Shown here in pieces: positions 18,145 through 22,116 of a stretch of DNA of 64,000 nt (its first letter is position 1; each line of letters begins with the position of its first letter). Origin of the DNA: an uncultured Trueperaceae bacterium (GTDB lineage: Bacteria; Deinococcota; Deinococci; Deinococcales; Trueperaceae); the NCBI GenBank assembly GCA_963727505.1, contig CAVSGP010000004.1:384001-448000 (forward strand), given 5' to 3'. Position numbers and translations under genes: made by a program. The notes under the pieces are model-generated. The model was not told the origin of the DNA. It did no database searches and saw only the letters and a program-made list of their open reading frames with translations.

Positions 18145-19560
18145 TCAGTGCTGCTTGGACGCTTCCTTGACCGCGTGGGTGCTGAAGCCGAAGGACGGCA
18201 GGTCAGGCTGCGCCGAGCCCTGCAGCACCGCGCGCGCCAGCCGACCGAGGGTCGTACCGCCGGTGTGAACGGGCATGGCCAGGCGCTGCTGCACTTCCCC
18301 CAGCGTGGTGTCGTCGAGGAAGGACTCGGTGCCGTACTTGAGCATGTTGGGCGAGAGGAGCAGGAGGTCGGCCTCGCGCGGCTCCACGGCGGCAAGGAGA
18401 TCCCGGCCGGCCAGCAGACCCGCCACCGTAGTGACCTCACCGAAGGTGCGGTTGGTCACCGTGCGCACCTCGAGATCGAGCCCTGGGATGGCGGCCAGCG
18501 GCGCGACCGCCCTGCTGAGCACGGGCGCGAAGAGGCGCCCCGTCGCGAGCACCACACGCCGTGGCGGATCGACGCGGTCGGGAAGTGCCGGTAGGCCCTC
18601 GTCCAGGAAGTCGCGCACCATGCCGATGCCGTTCTCCAGCATGGGGAACCCCTCGTAGGCGTCGGTGTCGGGCAACGGGACGCCGGCGCGCAGGTAGAAC
18701 TCGTCGCTGGCGAACACGAAGCGGGTGCCGCGCTCCGCGAGCATGCGCTGCTGGAAGGCATGGACCCGGCGCAGCACGTCCGCCGCCTGCTCGGGCGTGT
18801 GCGGCTCGAGCCGCGGCAGATGGTCGCGGTGCGCGGTCAGGCCGACGGGCACGGCAGCCACCGCCTGCACGTTAGGCCTGCCGGCGAGGTACTCCAGGGT
18901 GGACTGGAGATCCTCCTCGTCGTTGCGCCCCGGCAGCACCACCATCTGGGTGTAGAGGTCGATGGGCGCCAGACGCTCCATCATGGCGCGGAGGTGCAGC
19001 GCACCGGGGTGCGGCACCTTGTGCGGCCACGGCTTCATGAGACCGTCGCGCATGGCCTCGTCGGCACTGTGCACCGAGACGTACAGGGGGCTCAAGTGCT
19101 CGTCGAGGATGCGCTGGACGTCGTGCTCGGTGAGATTGGTCAGCGTCACGAACGAGCCATAGAGGAAGCTCGTGCGGAAGTCGTCGTCCATGATGTAGAG
19201 GCTCTTGCGCATGCCCTTGGGCATCTGGTGGATGTAGCAGAAGTCGCACTTGTTCGCGCACAGCCGGATGCCGTCGAAGATGACCTCGTCGAACTCGAGG
19301 CCGGGGTCCTCCCAGGACACATCGAAGGTGCTCACCCGGCCGCTCGTCGGCTCGCGCACCTCGACCGCGACGTCACCGCGCTCCAGCTCACGCCGGTACG
19401 CAAGCACGTCGGGGATGGCGCAGCCGTTGACGCGCAGCAGCTCCCAACCCGAGCGCACGCCCGCACGTTCCGCTGGCGAGCCCGGCTCGACCCGGACGAT
19501 CGCGGCCGGCGTGACCTCGAGGGGGCGGGGGGACTTGCGGCTGAGCACGACCTTCGGCAT
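18145..19560 (-). CDS. PDZ + radical SAM + DUF512 Fe-S protein
   Basis: N-terminal GSPAERAG, CANKCDFC (CxxxCxxC), FVTLTN, ENGIG, TVAGLL. Confidence 0.88.
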   Translation of the reverse strand: MPKVVLSRKSPRPLEVTPAAIVRVEPGSPAERAGVRSGWELLRVNGCAIPDVLAYRRELERGDVAVEVREPTSGRVSTFDVSWEDPGLEFDEVIFDGIRLCANKCDFCYIHQMPKGMRKSLYIMDDDFRTSFLYGSFVTLTNLTEHDVQRILDEHLSPLYVSVHSADEAMRDGLMKPWPHKVPHPGALHLRAMMERLAPIDLYTQMVVLPGRNDEEDLQSTLEYLAGRPNVQAVAAVPVGLTAHRDHLPRLEPHTPEQAADVLRRVHAFQQRMLAERGTRFVFASDEFYLRAGVPLPDTDAYEGFPMLENGIGMVRDFLDEGLPALPDRVDPPRRVVLATGRLFAPVLSRAVAPLAAIPGLDLEVRTVTNRTFGEVTTVAGLLAGRDLLAAVEPREADLLLLSPNMLKYGTESFLDDTTLGEVQQRLAMPVHTGGTTLGRLARAVLQGSAQPDLPSFGFSTHAVKEASKQH

Positions 19561-19618
19561 GACCGGTCATTCTAGCAGACGGCCTCGCGGGCCGGCGTCG
19601 CTGGGAGCGCGCAGGCGC

Positions 19619-20095
19619 CTACATGGCCTCGTCGGCGCTCTCGCCCGCGTCAGGGCGGTGGGAACGCGACGTGTCCGGCACGATGAAGCCATGGACCGGC
19701 GGCATCCCCTCGAAGCGCACGAAGCGGCCCTCATCGAAACGCTCGCCGCCGTCGTCCATCGCCGCGATGACCAGGGGTACGCCGCAATCGACGACGGTAA
19801 GGCGCCCCTCCCCCCCGATCACGCGACCGGCGCCGCGCAGCTCACCGAGCCCTGTCACCTCCAGCTCCACGTCCTCTCCCTCGGCCTCGGCGAGCCGTTC
19901 GACCATGGGGTTGAGGATGACGCGGTACGTCCCCGGTCCGGCGAGGTAGGGGCCGGTGCGATCGAGGAGCTGAAGGATCACCCCGTCGGCCATGCACTCG
20001 AGCAACGGCGAACCCTCGGTCCGCGCGAACAGCTGGACCTCGGCGGCGAACGCACGCCAGCGTTGGATGAACGCCTCGGGGGAGTCTTCGATCAT
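19619..20095 (-). CDS. Hypothetical protein
   Basis: 158 aa acidic, protein-like ORF with TAGAAT upstream; no family recognised. Confidence 0.7.
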   Translation of the reverse strand: MIEDSPEAFIQRWRAFAAEVQLFARTEGSPLLECMADGVILQLLDRTGPYLAGPGTYRVILNPMVERLAEAEGEDVELEVTGLGELRGAGRVIGGEGRLTVVDCGVPLVIAAMDDGGERFDEGRFVRFEGMPPVHGFIVPDTSRSHRPDAGESADEAM

Positions 20096-20178
20096 GCCGT
20101 CGGCATTCTACCGCTGCAGCGGCGGTCCTTCGCTCCGCGGCGTCGCCACGCACGGCCGGTCGCGCTCGGCCGCCGCCG

Positions 20179-20187
20179 TGCTAAACT
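20179..20187 (+). promoter_or_regulatory. Extended -10 promoter element TGcTAAACT
   Basis: Matches TGnTAnnnT, the same pattern as at many leaderless starts in this window. Confidence 0.6.
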
Positions 20188-20194
20188 CGTTTCC

Positions 20195-20227
20195 GTGAAG
20201 CGACCGTTCACGAAGGCGCATTCATGA
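20195..20227 (+). CDS. Putative leaderless leader peptide MKRPFTKAHS
   Basis: GTG 7 nt after the -10 box; its TGA abuts the 5' arm of the terminator. Confidence 0.4.
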   Translation: MKRPFTKAHS

Positions 20228-20260
20228 ACTCCGTTCGGGTCCGGGTGAACGGAGTTTTTT
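20227..20260 (+). terminator. Intrinsic terminator/attenuator in the 5' leader of the zinc-ribbon gene
   Basis: AACTCCGTTC (20227-36) pairs with GAACGGAGTT (20247-56), followed by TTTTATTGT. Confidence 0.8.
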
Positions 20261-20276
20261 ATTGTCTGGAGGCGGC

Positions 20277-20981
20277 ATGTTGGAGAAGTTGAGCGAAGTC
20301 CAGGGGTTCGACCTGCAGCTCGACGCCCTCCGGGAAGAGCGGGCGCAGACGCCGCCCGAGCTCCTGGAGACGCGCGAGAAGCGGCGCGACCTGGTGCGCC
20401 GCCTGGAGCGGAAGCAGCAGGAGCGCGACGATCTGCGCAAGCGGGTCGCGAGCACCGAGCTCGAGCTCAAGACCCTGCAGCAGAGGCGCAAGGATGCCTC
20501 CGAATCTTCCCTTCGCGCCAGCAGCGCCAAGGAAGCGTCGCAGTACCAGAACCAGGAGCTGCAGTTCGCTACGCGCGTGCAGGAGCTGGAGGAGGACGCG
20601 CTCCCGTTGATGGAGAGCCTCGAGACCTTGGAGCAGGAGGTGGACGGGCTCCAGGCCGAACTCGACGAGCTCCAGCCCACGCTCGACGCCATGGTCGCCG
20701 ACGAGGATGCCCGCGTCGCGGCGGTCGACGAGAAGACCGCGGACCTCAAGACGCAGCGCGACGTGCTGGCGGGCACGCTCGATCGGAGCCTGTTGAAACA
20801 GTACGAGCAGGTGCGCCGGGCGCGCCGCGGGCTGGGCCTGGTGGAGATCGTGGACAACCAGCGCTGCGGGGGCTGCAGCGTGCGTCTGCCGATCCACGTC
20901 ATCCAGAAGGCCCGCCGCGGCCGGGGCGTGGTGCGCTGCCCGAGTTGCGGGCGCATCCTGTGGCCGAAGGCCGACGGCTAG
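20277..20981 (+). CDS. Coiled-coil protein with C-terminal C4 zinc ribbon (DUF164/COG1579-like)
   Basis: Long heptad coiled coil, then RCGGC..CPSCGRIL; GGAGG RBS at 20268-72. Confidence 0.88.
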   Translation: MLEKLSEVQGFDLQLDALREERAQTPPELLETREKRRDLVRRLERKQQERDDLRKRVASTELELKTLQQRRKDASESSLRASSAKEASQYQNQELQFATRVQELEEDALPLMESLETLEQEVDGLQAELDELQPTLDAMVADEDARVAAVDEKTADLKTQRDVLAGTLDRSLLKQYEQVRRARRGLGLVEIVDNQRCGGCSVRLPIHVIQKARRGRGVVRCPSCGRILWPKADG

Positions 20982-21017
20982 ACCGACCCCAACGAGCCTT
21001 CGAACGCCACCACGGTC

Positions 21018-21047
21018 ACGGCCGGCGCCCCGAGGGGCGCCGGCCGT
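21018..21047. terminator. 14-bp inverted repeat between convergent genes
   Basis: ACGGCCGGCGCCCC-GA-GGGGCGCCGGCCGT. Confidence 0.65.
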
Positions 21048-21120
21048 CGTCTTGCGTGCTCTCGGTTCCGCCAGGTCCTGGGCCCGTCCCGGCGCGGCCT
21101 GTCCTGGCGGGCCGGAACGG

Positions 21121-22116
21121 TCAGTGCAACAGGGTCATGGGGTCGACGGCACGACCGTGCACGTGCACCTCGAAGTGGACGTGCGGTCCGGTCGAGATGC
21201 CCGTCGACCCTTCGCGACCGATGATCGCGCCCTGGTCGACGTACTCGCCCACGCGCACCAGGATCTTGCTGAAGTGCCCGTACCACGTCTCGTCGCCGTC
21301 CGGATGCCGGATCCTCACCAGATTTCCGTACCCCTCGGTCGACCAGCCCGCGAACACCACCACGCCCGAACGTGAGGCGTGGACCGGCGTTCCCCACGGC
21401 GCCGCGATGTCGATACCGCGGTGGAAGTTGGAGGTACCCATGCCGAGGTGCCGGGGCCCGTAGGGGGAGGTGATGCGCCCCTGGATCGGCCAGATGAAGC
21501 GGTGCTCGGCCTCGCGCACCTTCTTGAGTCGGGCGAGCGCCTGGGTCGGCTGGACGCCCGGAAGGAACAGCATCATGCCCGGCTGAACGTCGAACGGCGA
21601 ACGCAGGTGGTTGGCCCGGGCAACGGTGGCGGGATCGACGTGGTACTCCGCCAGCACGTCAGCCAGCGACGTTCCGGCCTCGAGCGTGACCACCAGCCCC
21701 TCGCGCGGCGGGATGAGGAGGTCTACGCCGGCCGGCAGGCTGTCGAGTGACGAGATGGTGGGATTGGCGCCGACGAGCGCCTCCAGGCTGAGCCCGTATG
21801 CGGTCGCCACCGACGACAACGTCTCCCCCGGCCTCAGCGTGTGCCAGCTGAAGCCGGGCGGGGTGCGGGGGCCGGCTTCGACCGGTCCGCCGATCGCCTC
21901 GACGTAAGGGATCTTGAGGGCTTCGCCCGGTCGGATGACCGACCCGTTGAGGTCGTTGGCCGCCATCAGGGCGTCCACCGAGATGCGGTAGTCCGATGCG
22001 ATCGACCCCAGGGACTCGCCCGGTCGAACGGTGTGCAGCGCGTAACCGTCGGCAACGGCAACAGGCGCCAGCAGGAAGAGAGCCATAGTGGCCCATGCAA
22101 CGATTCGGTGCTGCAA
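21121..22116 (-). CDS. LysM-repeat M23 metallopeptidase (cell-wall hydrolase)
   Basis: Signal peptide, three LysM-like repeats, HRGID, YGH, STGPHVHFE; TTG start after GAGGGG. Confidence 0.9.
   Translation of the reverse strand: MQHRIVAWATMALFLLAPVAVADGYALHTVRPGESLGSIASDYRISVDALMAANDLNGSVIRPGEALKIPYVEAIGGPVEAGPRTPPGFSWHTLRPGETLSSVATAYGLSLEALVGANPTISSLDSLPAGVDLLIPPREGLVVTLEAGTSLADVLAEYHVDPATVARANHLRSPFDVQPGMMLFLPGVQPTQALARLKKVREAEHRFIWPIQGRITSPYGPRHLGMGTSNFHRGIDIAAPWGTPVHASRSGVVVFAGWSTEGYGNLVRIRHPDGDETWYGHFSKILVRVGEYVDQGAIIGREGSTGISTGPHVHFEVHVHGRAVDPMTLLH

Follow-up and report, generated by a model that had tools for sequence, protein, structure and literature searches.

In an uncultured Trueperaceae bacterium, the short leader of a coiled-coil zinc-ribbon gene is best read as an attenuator-type leader, because a conserved promoter, a GUG-initiated open reading frame (ORF) and an intrinsic terminator precede the gene, with no room for another promoter. 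Comparison with relatives shows that the promoter, the 5'-GUG, the hairpin with its T-rich tail and the spacing are conserved, and that the element is present in a single copy per genome. It also shows that selection keeps the GUG frame closed near the ATG of the gene. We consider it probable that the hairpin is a premature terminator acting in cis. We propose more tentatively, as something short of an even bet, that the leader is a gene-specific, cis-acting, ribosome-gated transcription attenuator. The initial annotation had proposed an attenuator toggled by three mutually exclusive stems; the attenuator has gained from the conservation of promoter, 5'-GUG and terminator before the gene, and the three-stem toggling is not supported by comparison.

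Results

The gene and its leader

We analysed a 64,000-nucleotide stretch of DNA, referred to here as the window. The features discussed below are as follows.

19619..20095, minus strand: divergent neighbour gene, 158 aa, no known family
20179..20187, plus strand: extended -10 element TGCTAAACT, read directly, without a conserved -35 element
20195..20227, plus strand: uORF1, GTG start (predicted transcription start site G20195), 10 codons, MKRPFTKAHS
20212..20216, plus strand: Shine-Dalgarno (SD)-like GAAGG, 7 nt 5' of the uORF2 ATG, putative function
20224..20292, plus strand: putative uORF2, 22 codons
20226..20260, plus strand: predicted intrinsic terminator, 12-bp stem (20226-37 with 20246-57), 8-nt loop, T6
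20268..20272, plus strand: SD of the main gene, GGAGG, read directly and conserved in alignments
20277..20981, plus strand: main gene, 234 aa, coiled coil and C4 zinc ribbon, monocistronic

The main gene belongs to the CT398/HP0958/MSMEG_4306 family (DUF164, COG1579), with both domains above the Pfam cut-offs: the coiled coil matches CT398_CC (PF24481; 1.3e-15, 58.2 bits, cut-off 27) and the C-terminal C4 zinc ribbon matches Zn_ribbon_9 (PF02591; 1.4e-10, 41.5 bits, cut-off 29.1). The protein also matches PDB entries 5y05 (2.9e-13), 3na7 (5.3e-10) and 4ilo (2.6e-9). We do not regard it as a CdsZ equivalog, because it reaches only 69.7 bits against the NCBIfam CdsZ cut-off of 275. An orthologue is present in 41 of 41 related genomes. 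The family is widespread, and we know of no function established for it outside Helicobacter and Chlamydia. In the article texts covered, literature on DR0291, Truepera radiovictrix and CT398/HP0958/COG1579 contained nothing on regulation of the main gene. The nearest upstream gene is divergent, as annotated, since 19619-20095 reads on the minus strand; its promoter lies within the same 181-nt intergenic region as the leader. The start of this neighbour (MIED...) is recognisable upstream of the main gene in relatives.

The extended -10 box annotated at 20179-87 is indeed there, as is the GTG (20195-20197) that opens MKRPFTKAHS 7 nt past it. This spacing had been described as that of leaderless genes, and 6-7 nt is the mode in this genome for long ORFs adjoining a -10 box; for ORFs of at least 100 codons behind an extended -10 element, 50 + 50 cases fall at 6-7 nt. 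The start context of the leader GTG matches that of the 477 leaderless-type genes in a TANNNT-based set from the same genome. C occupies position -1 in 71-73% of the leaderless-type genes and likewise in the leader, where C at -1 together with G at +1 fits the genome's leaderless pattern. This C is C20194; being at -1 relative to the GTG, it is probably absent from the RNA. A TATTGT at 20260-65 was considered as a promoter for the main gene and rejected, because TANNNT is lost in two lineages (TATTCC in L009, TACTTG in L011) and most other lineages have no such motif.

A metatranscriptome run contained 0.09 of the sampled words. Its contigs represent a relative's coding sequence and cover 20339-20789 (25 of 451 letters differ) and 20826-20981 (14 of 156 differ), with the leader outside coverage.

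Conservation of the leader in Trueperaceae

Of 88 distinct regions upstream of the orthologous gene in Trueperaceae, 76 carry the module of promoter, 5' start and hairpin, with TGnTAnnnT located 28-52 nt 5' of the hairpin. Metagenome-assembled genomes of Truepera sp. (L062, L068, L079 and L085) are among those with the module. A start codon follows the -10 box at 5-8 nt in 75 of the 76 regions, and in 65 it is a GTG at a spacing of 7. Promoter, 5'-GUG and hairpin all lie well beyond what chance would give. Between -10 box and GTG the discriminator varies freely across the family. GTG accounts for 38-43% of starts in ordinary leaderless genes of the genome; since the leader GTG is kept far more strictly, its retention hints at a constraint other than the need for any start codon. 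The 5' nucleotides GUGAnnCGA, third codon positions included, are conserved as RNA or DNA and not as peptide, and among the unpaired parts of the leader RNA the first 9-12 nt are conserved best, if only moderately.

Conservation of GUGAnnCGA at the nucleotide level, in an element that is gene-specific and single-copy as autoregulatory leaders are, would fit an attenuator controlled by a protein, most economically by the product of the gene, which would bind at the 5' nucleotides or at the hairpin and so set termination. However, the leader has no conserved structure and no CT398-family member is reported to bind its own mRNA in the literature that we found. We consider autoregulation of this kind improbable.

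GTG and hairpin are 25-37 nt apart in most regions, and hairpin and ATG are separated by anything between 16 and more than 140 nt. The latter gap is at most 21 nt in 53 of the 76 module-bearing regions and exceeds 40 nt in 12, in 7 of which the spacer lacks TANNNT. An RNA model of the leader (R1) gave one full-length match per genome, always adjoining the main gene and co-oriented with it. We rejected the idea of a repeated or mobile hairpin on the basis of these single matches, and of the arm motif recurring only at the leader locus and at unrelated sites. One clade (L084/L091) has an extended -10 motif, TGGTAG(T/G)GT, between terminator and gene, and still keeps the upstream unit.

These distances bear on whether the unit is an independent sRNA of ~66 nt, possibly dual-function, with the gene transcribed through a leaky terminator or, in certain lineages, from a promoter of its own. 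The unit does have its own promoter and terminator, its best-conserved unpaired part is at the extreme 5' end, as in 5'-seed sRNAs, and its GTG-hairpin distance is constant while the hairpin-ATG distance varies; its retention in L084/L091, despite the second -10 motif, points the same way. An independent RNA would nevertheless not be expected to adjoin the same gene, co-oriented and once per genome, in every case. The short gap in most regions, the absence of a -10 box from most longer spacers, and the closure of the GUG frame described below, which better fits a translated RNA, also argue against it. We regard an independent sRNA as unlikely, if less so than autoregulation.

The predicted terminator hairpin

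The hairpin at 20226-20257 has 12 pairs, two of them G-U, with a T6 run at 20255-20260 and a folded energy of -16.6 kcal/mol. It had been annotated as a stem with a U-tract, abutted by the uORF stop and about 16 nt from the zinc-ribbon ATG; we find the stop TGA at 20225-27, a stem of 12 bp, and the main ATG at 20277, 16 nt past the T-run. For the structure, which was named by hand (RNAalifold gave no pairs on MAFFT alignment A1, in which some rows are out of register), 93.6% of cells in relatives are paired, compared with 33-51% when the pairing is slid, and 7 of 12 pairs have changed on both sides. In a wider set the values are 84.1% and 37-54%, and two-sided changes affect 10 of 12 pairs. 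A T-rich tail follows the hairpin in 34 of 34 sequences, averaging 4.35 T per 8 nt, compared with a T content of 20% in the leader. With its G+C-rich stem-loop, U-tract and compensatory changes in relatives, the element has the predicted properties of an intrinsic terminator. T-tracts are interrupted in many relatives, which may terminate poorly.

Canonical terminators are very rare in this phylum, in which most mRNAs are leaderless. The host genome (3.26 Mb, 70% GC) contains just 71 runs of at least five T, and its perfect hairpin+T5 sites number only 9, the leader terminator among them. Strong T-tract hairpins in this genome occur mainly within regulatory leaders; leaders with a uORF and a T-tract terminator precede pheS, a gene for a TPP enzyme and a gene for a class II aminoacyl-tRNA synthetase.

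Upstream ORFs and frame closure

In the window, uORF1 ends at the hairpin foot and its stop overlaps the ATG of uORF2 (ATGA); uORF2 then continues across the hairpin and the SD of the main gene, ending 13 nt past the start of the main ATG. The overlapping restart is weak evidence, because any TGA without a preceding C yields one. Among 12 genus-level leaders, the uORF2 start is ATG in 11 and TTG in one, and the SD-like element has A20 in at least 90% and invariant G21 and G22 between variable flanks.

The 10-codon uORF that had been annotated is conserved in its start codon (75 of 76 regions) but not in its peptide. Across the family, uORF1 ranges from 6 to over 30 codons, even close relatives differing (10 versus 27 codons in L040/L041, 27 versus 6 in L054/L055). 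Comparison of the family leaders revealed no conservation of the variable peptide beyond the genus, no regulatory codons and no shared residue bias. In 39 of 65 cases uORF1 passes the hairpin, and all 39 of these uORFs have their stop within -13 to +17 relative to the main ATG; the exceptions are L055 and L072, where uORF1 stops 12-16 nt 5' of the hairpin foot. The length of uORF1 alone proves nothing, because a genome of 70% GC will have open frames by chance, and this base composition leaves a test for stop-codon depletion within the 30-nt leader without power.

In 40 of 40 sequence clusters the GUG frame has reached a stop by position +20 of the main ATG, whereas control frames are closed in 44 cases and open in 36. 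Among frames in phase with the main ORF, closure is seen in 7 of 7 GUG frames and in 9 of 33 controls (Fisher 6e-4); for the other off-frame, the counts are 13 of 13 and 16 of 27 (Fisher 7e-3), all with related sequences treated as independent, such that significance is overstated. Consistent closure of the GUG frame, with controls often open, suggests that the leader GUG is translated, and we lean towards this conclusion.

Frame closure also bears on whether the element could be constitutive, the hairpin being a partial terminator or 5' stabiliser that sets low expression, and the GUG a relic of a leaderless start held in place by its promoter and start-site context. Orthologues in sister families are themselves leaderless, their GTG or ATG coming straight after the -10 box: L029 starts GTGAGCGACC, and the window counterpart is GTGAAGCGACC. 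The lack of a conserved alternative structure and the imperfect T-tracts of many lineages are also as a constitutive element would have them. A relic would not, however, account for TG at +2/+3 being kept in 75 of 76 regions while the discriminator has been randomised, nor for a frame closed in every cluster, and the concentration of strong T-tract hairpins in regulatory leaders of this genome speaks for regulation. We therefore think a constitutive element rather unlikely.

Alternative structures

All three pairings named in the initial annotation are present in the window: an anti-antiterminator (CGTGAA 20194-99 with TTCACG 20207-12), an antiterminator (CCGTTCAC 20204-11 with GTGAACGG 20245-52) and the terminator. 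A switch between them by a ribosome, a protein or a ligand would be consistent with the strength of the antiterminator duplex between leader and 3' arm, which has an energy of -11.9 kcal/mol where shuffles give -5.4 (z -4.3), and with the antiterminator pairing being adopted, at -17.7 kcal/mol, when the window is folded with the 5' arm blocked. The duplex is also strong in L003 (z -2.75), and a 5' stem in the window exceeds shuffles (z = -2.1) but is unconserved in relatives. Strong antiterminator pairing is, however, confined to L001-L004, all of which have the same leader, and is lost in the congeners L007, L009, L010 and L039 (z +0.76, +0.20, +0.01 and +0.76, respectively); over 46 leaders, mean z is -0.11 with the 3' arm and +0.47 with the 5' arm. 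Family-wide covariation, clear for the terminator stem, is absent from both upstream stems: pairing of the anti-antiterminator extends to 54% of cells (36-44% when slid), a value reached by 60 of 500 shuffles, and that of the antiterminator to 55.9% (32-59% when slid). Moreover, the antiterminator pairs with the later-made 3' arm, and would therefore compete with the terminator only if the 5' arm were held. We conclude that a three-stem switch is very unlikely.

Leaders of the family fold no better than their shuffles (mean z -0.02 over 41 leaders), and this lack of a conserved fold argues against a ligand aptamer. An Rfam cmscan of 19500-21500 with E up to 10 gave no match in the leader, in agreement with the earlier failure to assign it to a riboswitch class. 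Rfam searches of six other terminator-bearing leaders gave nothing credible, the best match being anti-hemB at 19.3 bits against a gathering threshold of 49.5. The leader shares with Rfam riboswitches that have terminator platforms a 5' leader that closes with an intrinsic terminator ahead of the regulated gene; in contrast to them, it has only ~30 nt 5' of the terminator, without a conserved fold or an Rfam match. It is not a new riboswitch class.

Discussion

We propose the following model for ribosome-gated attenuation, in which the transcription start site, uORF translation, termination in vivo, the direction of the ribosome's effect and the physiological signal are all predictions from the DNA. 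Transcription would start at G20195 from the extended -10 promoter, and so the RNA would begin with GUG. A 5'-terminal AUG or GUG suffices for ribosome recruitment in this phylum. About 30 nt past the 5' end, RNA polymerase would encounter the terminator, with the SD-led zinc-ribbon gene 16 nt further on; having no promoter of its own, the gene would be expressed solely by read-through. With no ribosome behind the polymerase, the hairpin would form and a transcript of ~66 nt would end near 20258-20261. Ribosomes translating uORF1 and the SD-led uORF2 would occupy or melt the 5' arm of the hairpin, such that the terminator fails, and after read-through the uORF ribosomes would be passed on to the start of the main gene. 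What the leader senses is probably translation capacity and not an amino acid.

With leader-peptide attenuators of the trp/his/phe type, the leader appears to share a short ORF with a usable start and a terminator between that ORF and the gene. Regulatory codons and conserved, mutually exclusive antiterminator and terminator pairings are absent from the family leaders. Against ribosome gating we note that the peptide, its length and its stop position vary between close relatives, which have no regulatory codons, and that there is no conserved antiterminator or pause hairpin.

In the pyrBI leader of E. coli, the leader ORF, which has no regulatory codons, overlaps the terminator, and a close-following ribosome blocks the hairpin. 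The leader ORF here likewise reaches or crosses the terminator (39 of 65, with L055 and L072 excepted). However, pyrBI senses UTP through U-rich pause sites and its leader ORF is SD-led, whereas here the ORF starts at the 5' end and no such pause region, or U-rich tract in the leader, was seen by eye. In the same genome, the pheS, TPP-enzyme and class II synthetase leaders have the same order of -10, start, short ORF, hairpin with T5-T6, and SD. Their start codon lies 7-8 nt after the -10 box in two and, as read by eye, 10 nt in the third (class II, near-5'). Those leaders carry TTGACA-type -35 boxes and are of the classical amino-acid kind, unlike the leader studied here, which has no -35 element and whose uORF abuts or crosses the hairpin.

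De Groot et al. 2014 (PMC4007540) predict leaderless leader peptides in Deinococcus deserti and propose that they control transcription attenuation. Transcription there starts at the 5'-AUG or GUG of a short ORF, 10 residues long in one example, that leads an SD-led gene; 14 such peptides are in its Table S9. The phylum, the 5'-terminal start codon, the short ORF and the SD-led gene are thus shared with our leader; what differs here is a CT398-family gene, a variable peptide without residue bias and the lack of a conserved antiterminator. Mycobacteria have polycysteine leaderless short ORFs as first cistrons, which control the downstream gene through ribosome position, stalling at Cys codons opening a structure that hides the downstream ribosome-binding site (Canestrari et al. 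2020, 10.1101/834739). Compared with that translational control, the structure here is a terminator, the SD is uncovered and there is no codon tract. For M. tuberculosis, D'Halluin et al. 2023 (10.1101/2022.06.01.494293) describe premature termination in 5' leaders with translated uORFs, and propose that tight coupling by overlapping stop and start codons suppresses termination. Conditional terminators there are mostly Rho-dependent and intrinsic terminators rare, in contrast to the canonical hairpin and T-tract found here. In E. coli, 5'-uAUG mRNAs, which are SD-led, bind ribosomes through a 5'-terminal start codon that can affect the downstream cistron (PMC4965119); the abstract of that study reports no terminator and no family-wide conservation.

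The leader is most likely a variation on an established type of regulation and not a novel riboswitch. It is an unusually clean, Trueperaceae-wide conserved pairing of a 5'-terminal (leaderless) uORF with a canonical terminator. The contrast with the sister families provides a concrete example of a leaderless gene turning SD-led and attenuated. We can envisage, although we doubt it, that a cassette of terminator and SD was acquired in a Trueperaceae ancestor behind the first codons of a leaderless gene, stranding its 5'-GUG as a uORF start and yielding a gene-specific sensor of leaderless (70S) translation capacity. The CT398/DR0291-family protein would then be made only when ribosomes load at the 5' end and follow the polymerase. 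If true, this would link a widespread protein family to the monitoring of translation or of its coupling to transcription. The signal that opens the proposed attenuator, once known, would be a first clue to the conditions under which cells require the CT398-family protein.

A terminator leader upstream of the zinc-ribbon gene

Direct reading of the sequence recovered all of the elements that the initial annotation had listed at this locus, and the neighbouring upstream gene is divergent, as it had claimed:

20179-20187, plus strand: extended -10 box, TGCTAAACT
20195-20227, plus strand: uORF1, MKRPFTKAHS; GTG at 20195, 7 bases after the -10 box, stop TGA at 20225-20227
20226-20257: terminator hairpin, 12 pairs including two G-U, loop of 8; T6 at 20255-20260
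20268-20272, plus strand: Shine-Dalgarno (SD) sequence GGAGG
20277, plus strand: ATG of the main gene
19619-20095, minus strand: upstream neighbour gene

C20194 is probably position -1 and outside the transcript, and the stop codon of uORF1 shares bases with the foot of the hairpin stem. The 234-aa main-gene product matches Pfam CT398_CC (1.3e-15) and Zn_ribbon_9 (1.4e-10), both exceeding cut-offs, as well as the solved proteins MSMEG_4306, HP0958 and CT398; it scores far below the cut-off of NCBIfam CdsZ. According to two papers (PMC8469502, PMC3372290), the function of this DUF164/COG1579/'DR0291' family is not established outside Helicobacter and Chlamydia. The next downstream gene is convergent, so the main gene is monocistronic. 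Between it and the convergent LysM/M23 peptidase gene lies a G+C-rich hairpin with no T-tract (21012-21050), which was noticed only through a chance match to mir-1909 (17.4 bits; gathering score 80) and probably serves one or both genes as a 3' end structure. The divergent 158-aa gene (19619-20110, minus strand) matched no Pfam or NCBIfam family and is syntenic across the family, with a recognisable start, MIED. TAGAAT stands 9 nt before its ATG; thus, the 181-nt intergenic region carries two back-to-back -10-only promoters.

The leader is conserved across Trueperaceae

All 41 related genomes carry the orthologue. Scanning species-representative genomes (83 relatives, nearly all Trueperaceae MAGs; 80 loci kept) gave, once 15 duplicates were dropped, 94 distinct upstream regions: 88 from the family or unassigned near relatives and 6 from sister families. 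Anchoring the count on the hairpin, with no start codon required, we found TGnTAnnnT 28-52 nt 5' of a strong hairpin in 76 of the 88. The triplet 7 nt past the -10 box is GTG in 65 of these leaders and ATG in one; a further nine place a start codon at a spacing of 5, 6 or 8, and the remaining one (L056) was mis-anchored, the motif being seen there in a separate reading. The six or seven bases between box and GTG vary freely, whereas C at -1, the GTG itself and A at +4 are conserved. In most leaders the hairpin begins 25-37 nt past the GTG. The gap from hairpin to main ATG is at most 21 nt in 53 of the 76, 22-40 nt in 11 and longer in 12, and TANNNT is missing from the spacer in 7 of these 12. 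On this basis, the main gene would be transcribable only through the hairpin in most lineages.

An independent small RNA, which we consider unlikely, would fit the constancy of the promoter-to-hairpin unit, and also loci L084 and L091, where a second extended -10 motif (TGGTAGGGT / TGGTAGTGT) lies 3' of the terminator, ahead of the zinc-ribbon gene. The clade of L084, L087 and L091 keeps promoter, uORF and a T7-T8 terminator as a unit; QTPRA is common to the L087 and L091 uORFs, its codons differing only synonymously.

The hairpin is probably a terminator of a rare, canonical kind

The initial annotation had proposed covariation as a check on the stems, and for the terminator the relatives bear it out. 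Across 34 in-register sequences, 93.6% of hairpin cells are paired (33-51% with the partner slid) and 7 of 12 pairs have changed on both sides, and none of 500 shuffles reaches the covariation score; in a wider set of 53 sequences the values are 84.1%, 37-54% and 10 of 12. In all 34, 2-6 of the eight bases past the stem are T (mean 4.35), the leader being 20% T, and the T-tract is often interrupted outside the genus. From these comparisons of sequence we take the hairpin to be a genuine terminator, kept by selection.

Canonical terminators are extremely rare in the window's own genome (G000; 3.26 Mb, 70% G+C), which contains 71 T runs of five or more and nine perfect hairpin-plus-T5 sites. One is after a tRNA and one after the 16S rRNA 3' end, the latter suggesting an unlinked 16S gene. 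Five are in 5' leaders, including that of the zinc-ribbon gene; the other four precede pheS, a TPP-enzyme gene, a class II aminoacyl-tRNA synthetase gene and one gene with no assignment. Two of these leaders have a -10 box and, 7-8 nt on, the ATG of a short ORF; in the synthetase leader the ATG is 10 nt past TAGATT (read by eye).

Other terminator leaders in G000
C9:701200-701340 (L115, about 400-540): pheS leader; TTGACA, GGCTAGACT, 7 nt, ATG
C4:59830-60075 (L112): TPP-enzyme leader; TATACT, 8 nt, ATG of a 23-codon ORF, T-tract terminator
C9:217980-218200 (L116), minus strand: class II (D/K/N) synthetase leader; T-tract terminator

The pheS ORF (11 codons, MRNRAVSAFTR) has a single Phe codon and is followed by a 10-bp hairpin with T6, GGAGG and pheS (Pfam tRNA-synt_2d, 1.6e-89); with it, G000 has a second terminator leader of the leaderless-uORF kind. 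By our reading the TPP-enzyme gene, of which the N-terminal domain alone scored, is acetolactate-synthase-like, and the synthetase ORF contains Asp-Asp-Asn (read by eye). Rfam gave no match for L112 or L116.

Three further elements were observed. At C9:462990-463095 (L114), the promoter TTGACA-N17-TATGGT is followed after about 35-45 nt by a 7-bp hairpin and T6; the unit is a candidate leader or very short RNA and has no Rfam match. At C5:220900-221010 (L113), TGCTATAGT is followed by 8 nt, TTG and, about 30 nt on, a 7-bp hairpin with T5; an SD-led gene lies about 40 nt past this promoter-proximal terminator. At C4:921276, outside the window, TGCTAGAGT, 7 nt and ATGAAGCGA... open a 13-codon ORF (MKRAGRASRPGRR) that ends 6 nt 5' of the next gene's GGAGG and ATG, with no terminator; its first nine bases are those of the zinc-ribbon leader, except A for G.

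The proposed three-stem switch is not conserved

The initial annotation had also named three mutually exclusive pairings, each of which is present in the window sequence. Across relatives, the anti-antiterminator (GTGAA/TTCAC) has 54.2% of cells paired against 36-44% slid, a fraction reached by 60 of 500 shuffles, with no excess covariation; the antiterminator has 55.9% against 32-59%. For the leader/3'-arm duplex, the energy stands out in the window (z -4.3) and L003 (z -2.75) but not in other species of the genus, and mean z is -0.11 over 46 leaders; leader/5'-arm pairing is avoided if anything (mean z +0.47). The switch is thus confined to one shallow lineage.

By itself the leader is no more stably folded than its shuffles (mean z -0.02 over 41 leaders; -2.08 in the window), and an Rfam scan of it gave no match. 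This speaks against the ligand control that the initial annotation had suggested as one option; a ligand aptamer in the leader is unlikely. Protein-mediated attenuation, possibly autoregulation, would be another way of controlling this terminator, and we rate it as quite improbable.

The GUG frame closes as a translated frame would

Conservation of the uORF, which the initial annotation had also put forward for checking, holds for the start codon after the -10 box; peptide and length are not kept. Lengths run from 6 to more than 30 codons, and close relatives alternate between short and long versions. The first three codons keep their third positions, a constraint that does not act on the peptide. 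The GUG context (spacing 7, C at -1) is that of 477 leaderless-type genes in G000; oddly, the leader GTG is far stricter than in those genes, where GTG makes up 38-43%.

At 70% G+C, open frames are the chance expectation. Among 65 leaders with 78-100 nt from GTG to ATG, the GUG frame closes in all 65: 26 end ahead of the hairpin or within it, and the other 39 read past it to a stop at -13 to +17 of the main ATG. In clusters at 80% identity it is closed by +20 in 40 of 40, against 44 closed and 36 open for the two control frames. In phase with the main ORF, GUG frames are closed in 7/7 versus 9/33 (Fisher 6e-4), and in the other off-frame in 13/13 versus 16/27 (7e-3), p-values that treat clusters as independent and overstate significance, since related sequences are not. 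Selection on a translated frame would nonetheless produce this pattern; a constitutive element is, to our minds, just as improbable as protein-mediated attenuation.

In 12 leaders of the genus, G21 and G22 (20215-16) and T31, G32 and A33 (20225-27) are invariant with variable flanks, and A20, C29 and A30 are shared by at least 90%. Together they yield an SD-like GAAGG seven bases 5' of an ATG overlapping the uORF1 stop. Taken on its own, the ATGA overlap is weak evidence. The resulting uORF2 crosses hairpin and main SD and stops at +13 of the main gene. Its phase relative to the main gene is that of the long single uORF in neighbouring clades, where GTG and ATG are 83 nt apart versus 82 nt in the two-uORF form; we take the latter to be the long uORF with a frameshift.

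A possible mechanism and origin

We tentatively propose a premature terminator at which read-through would depend on ribosomes translating the 5'-terminal uORF(s), working like the pyrBI attenuator. In collided ribosome-polymerase complexes, the P site is roughly 35 nt from the polymerase active site. At this distance, a ribosome on the final codon of uORF1 would cover the 5' arm as polymerase reaches the T-tract. The predicted leaderless leader peptides of D. deserti are similar, but the Trueperaceae leader is without regulatory codons.

The leader is single-copy. A covariance model of its first 75 nt found one full-length match in G000 (74.6 bits; the next best, hairpin-only, 25 bits) and, among 41 genomes, 17 with a match at E up to 0.001, exactly one apiece. 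Sixteen sit 8-36 nt upstream of the orthologue; the seventeenth (29.6 bits) is elsewhere in a sister-family genome. Nine of 24 family genomes gave no match, several of which show the module by eye. Because the model was built partly from the genomes searched, detection is circular; uniqueness is unaffected. In each of the order's four other families, a -10 box directly precedes the orthologue's own start codon (GTG in three, ATG in one), and the 5' start reads GTGAGCGACC in L029 and GTGAAGCGACC in the window RNA. With low confidence, we infer that the 5' end in Trueperaceae goes back to the gene's ancestral start, behind which a hairpin, an SD and a new ATG would later have been placed.
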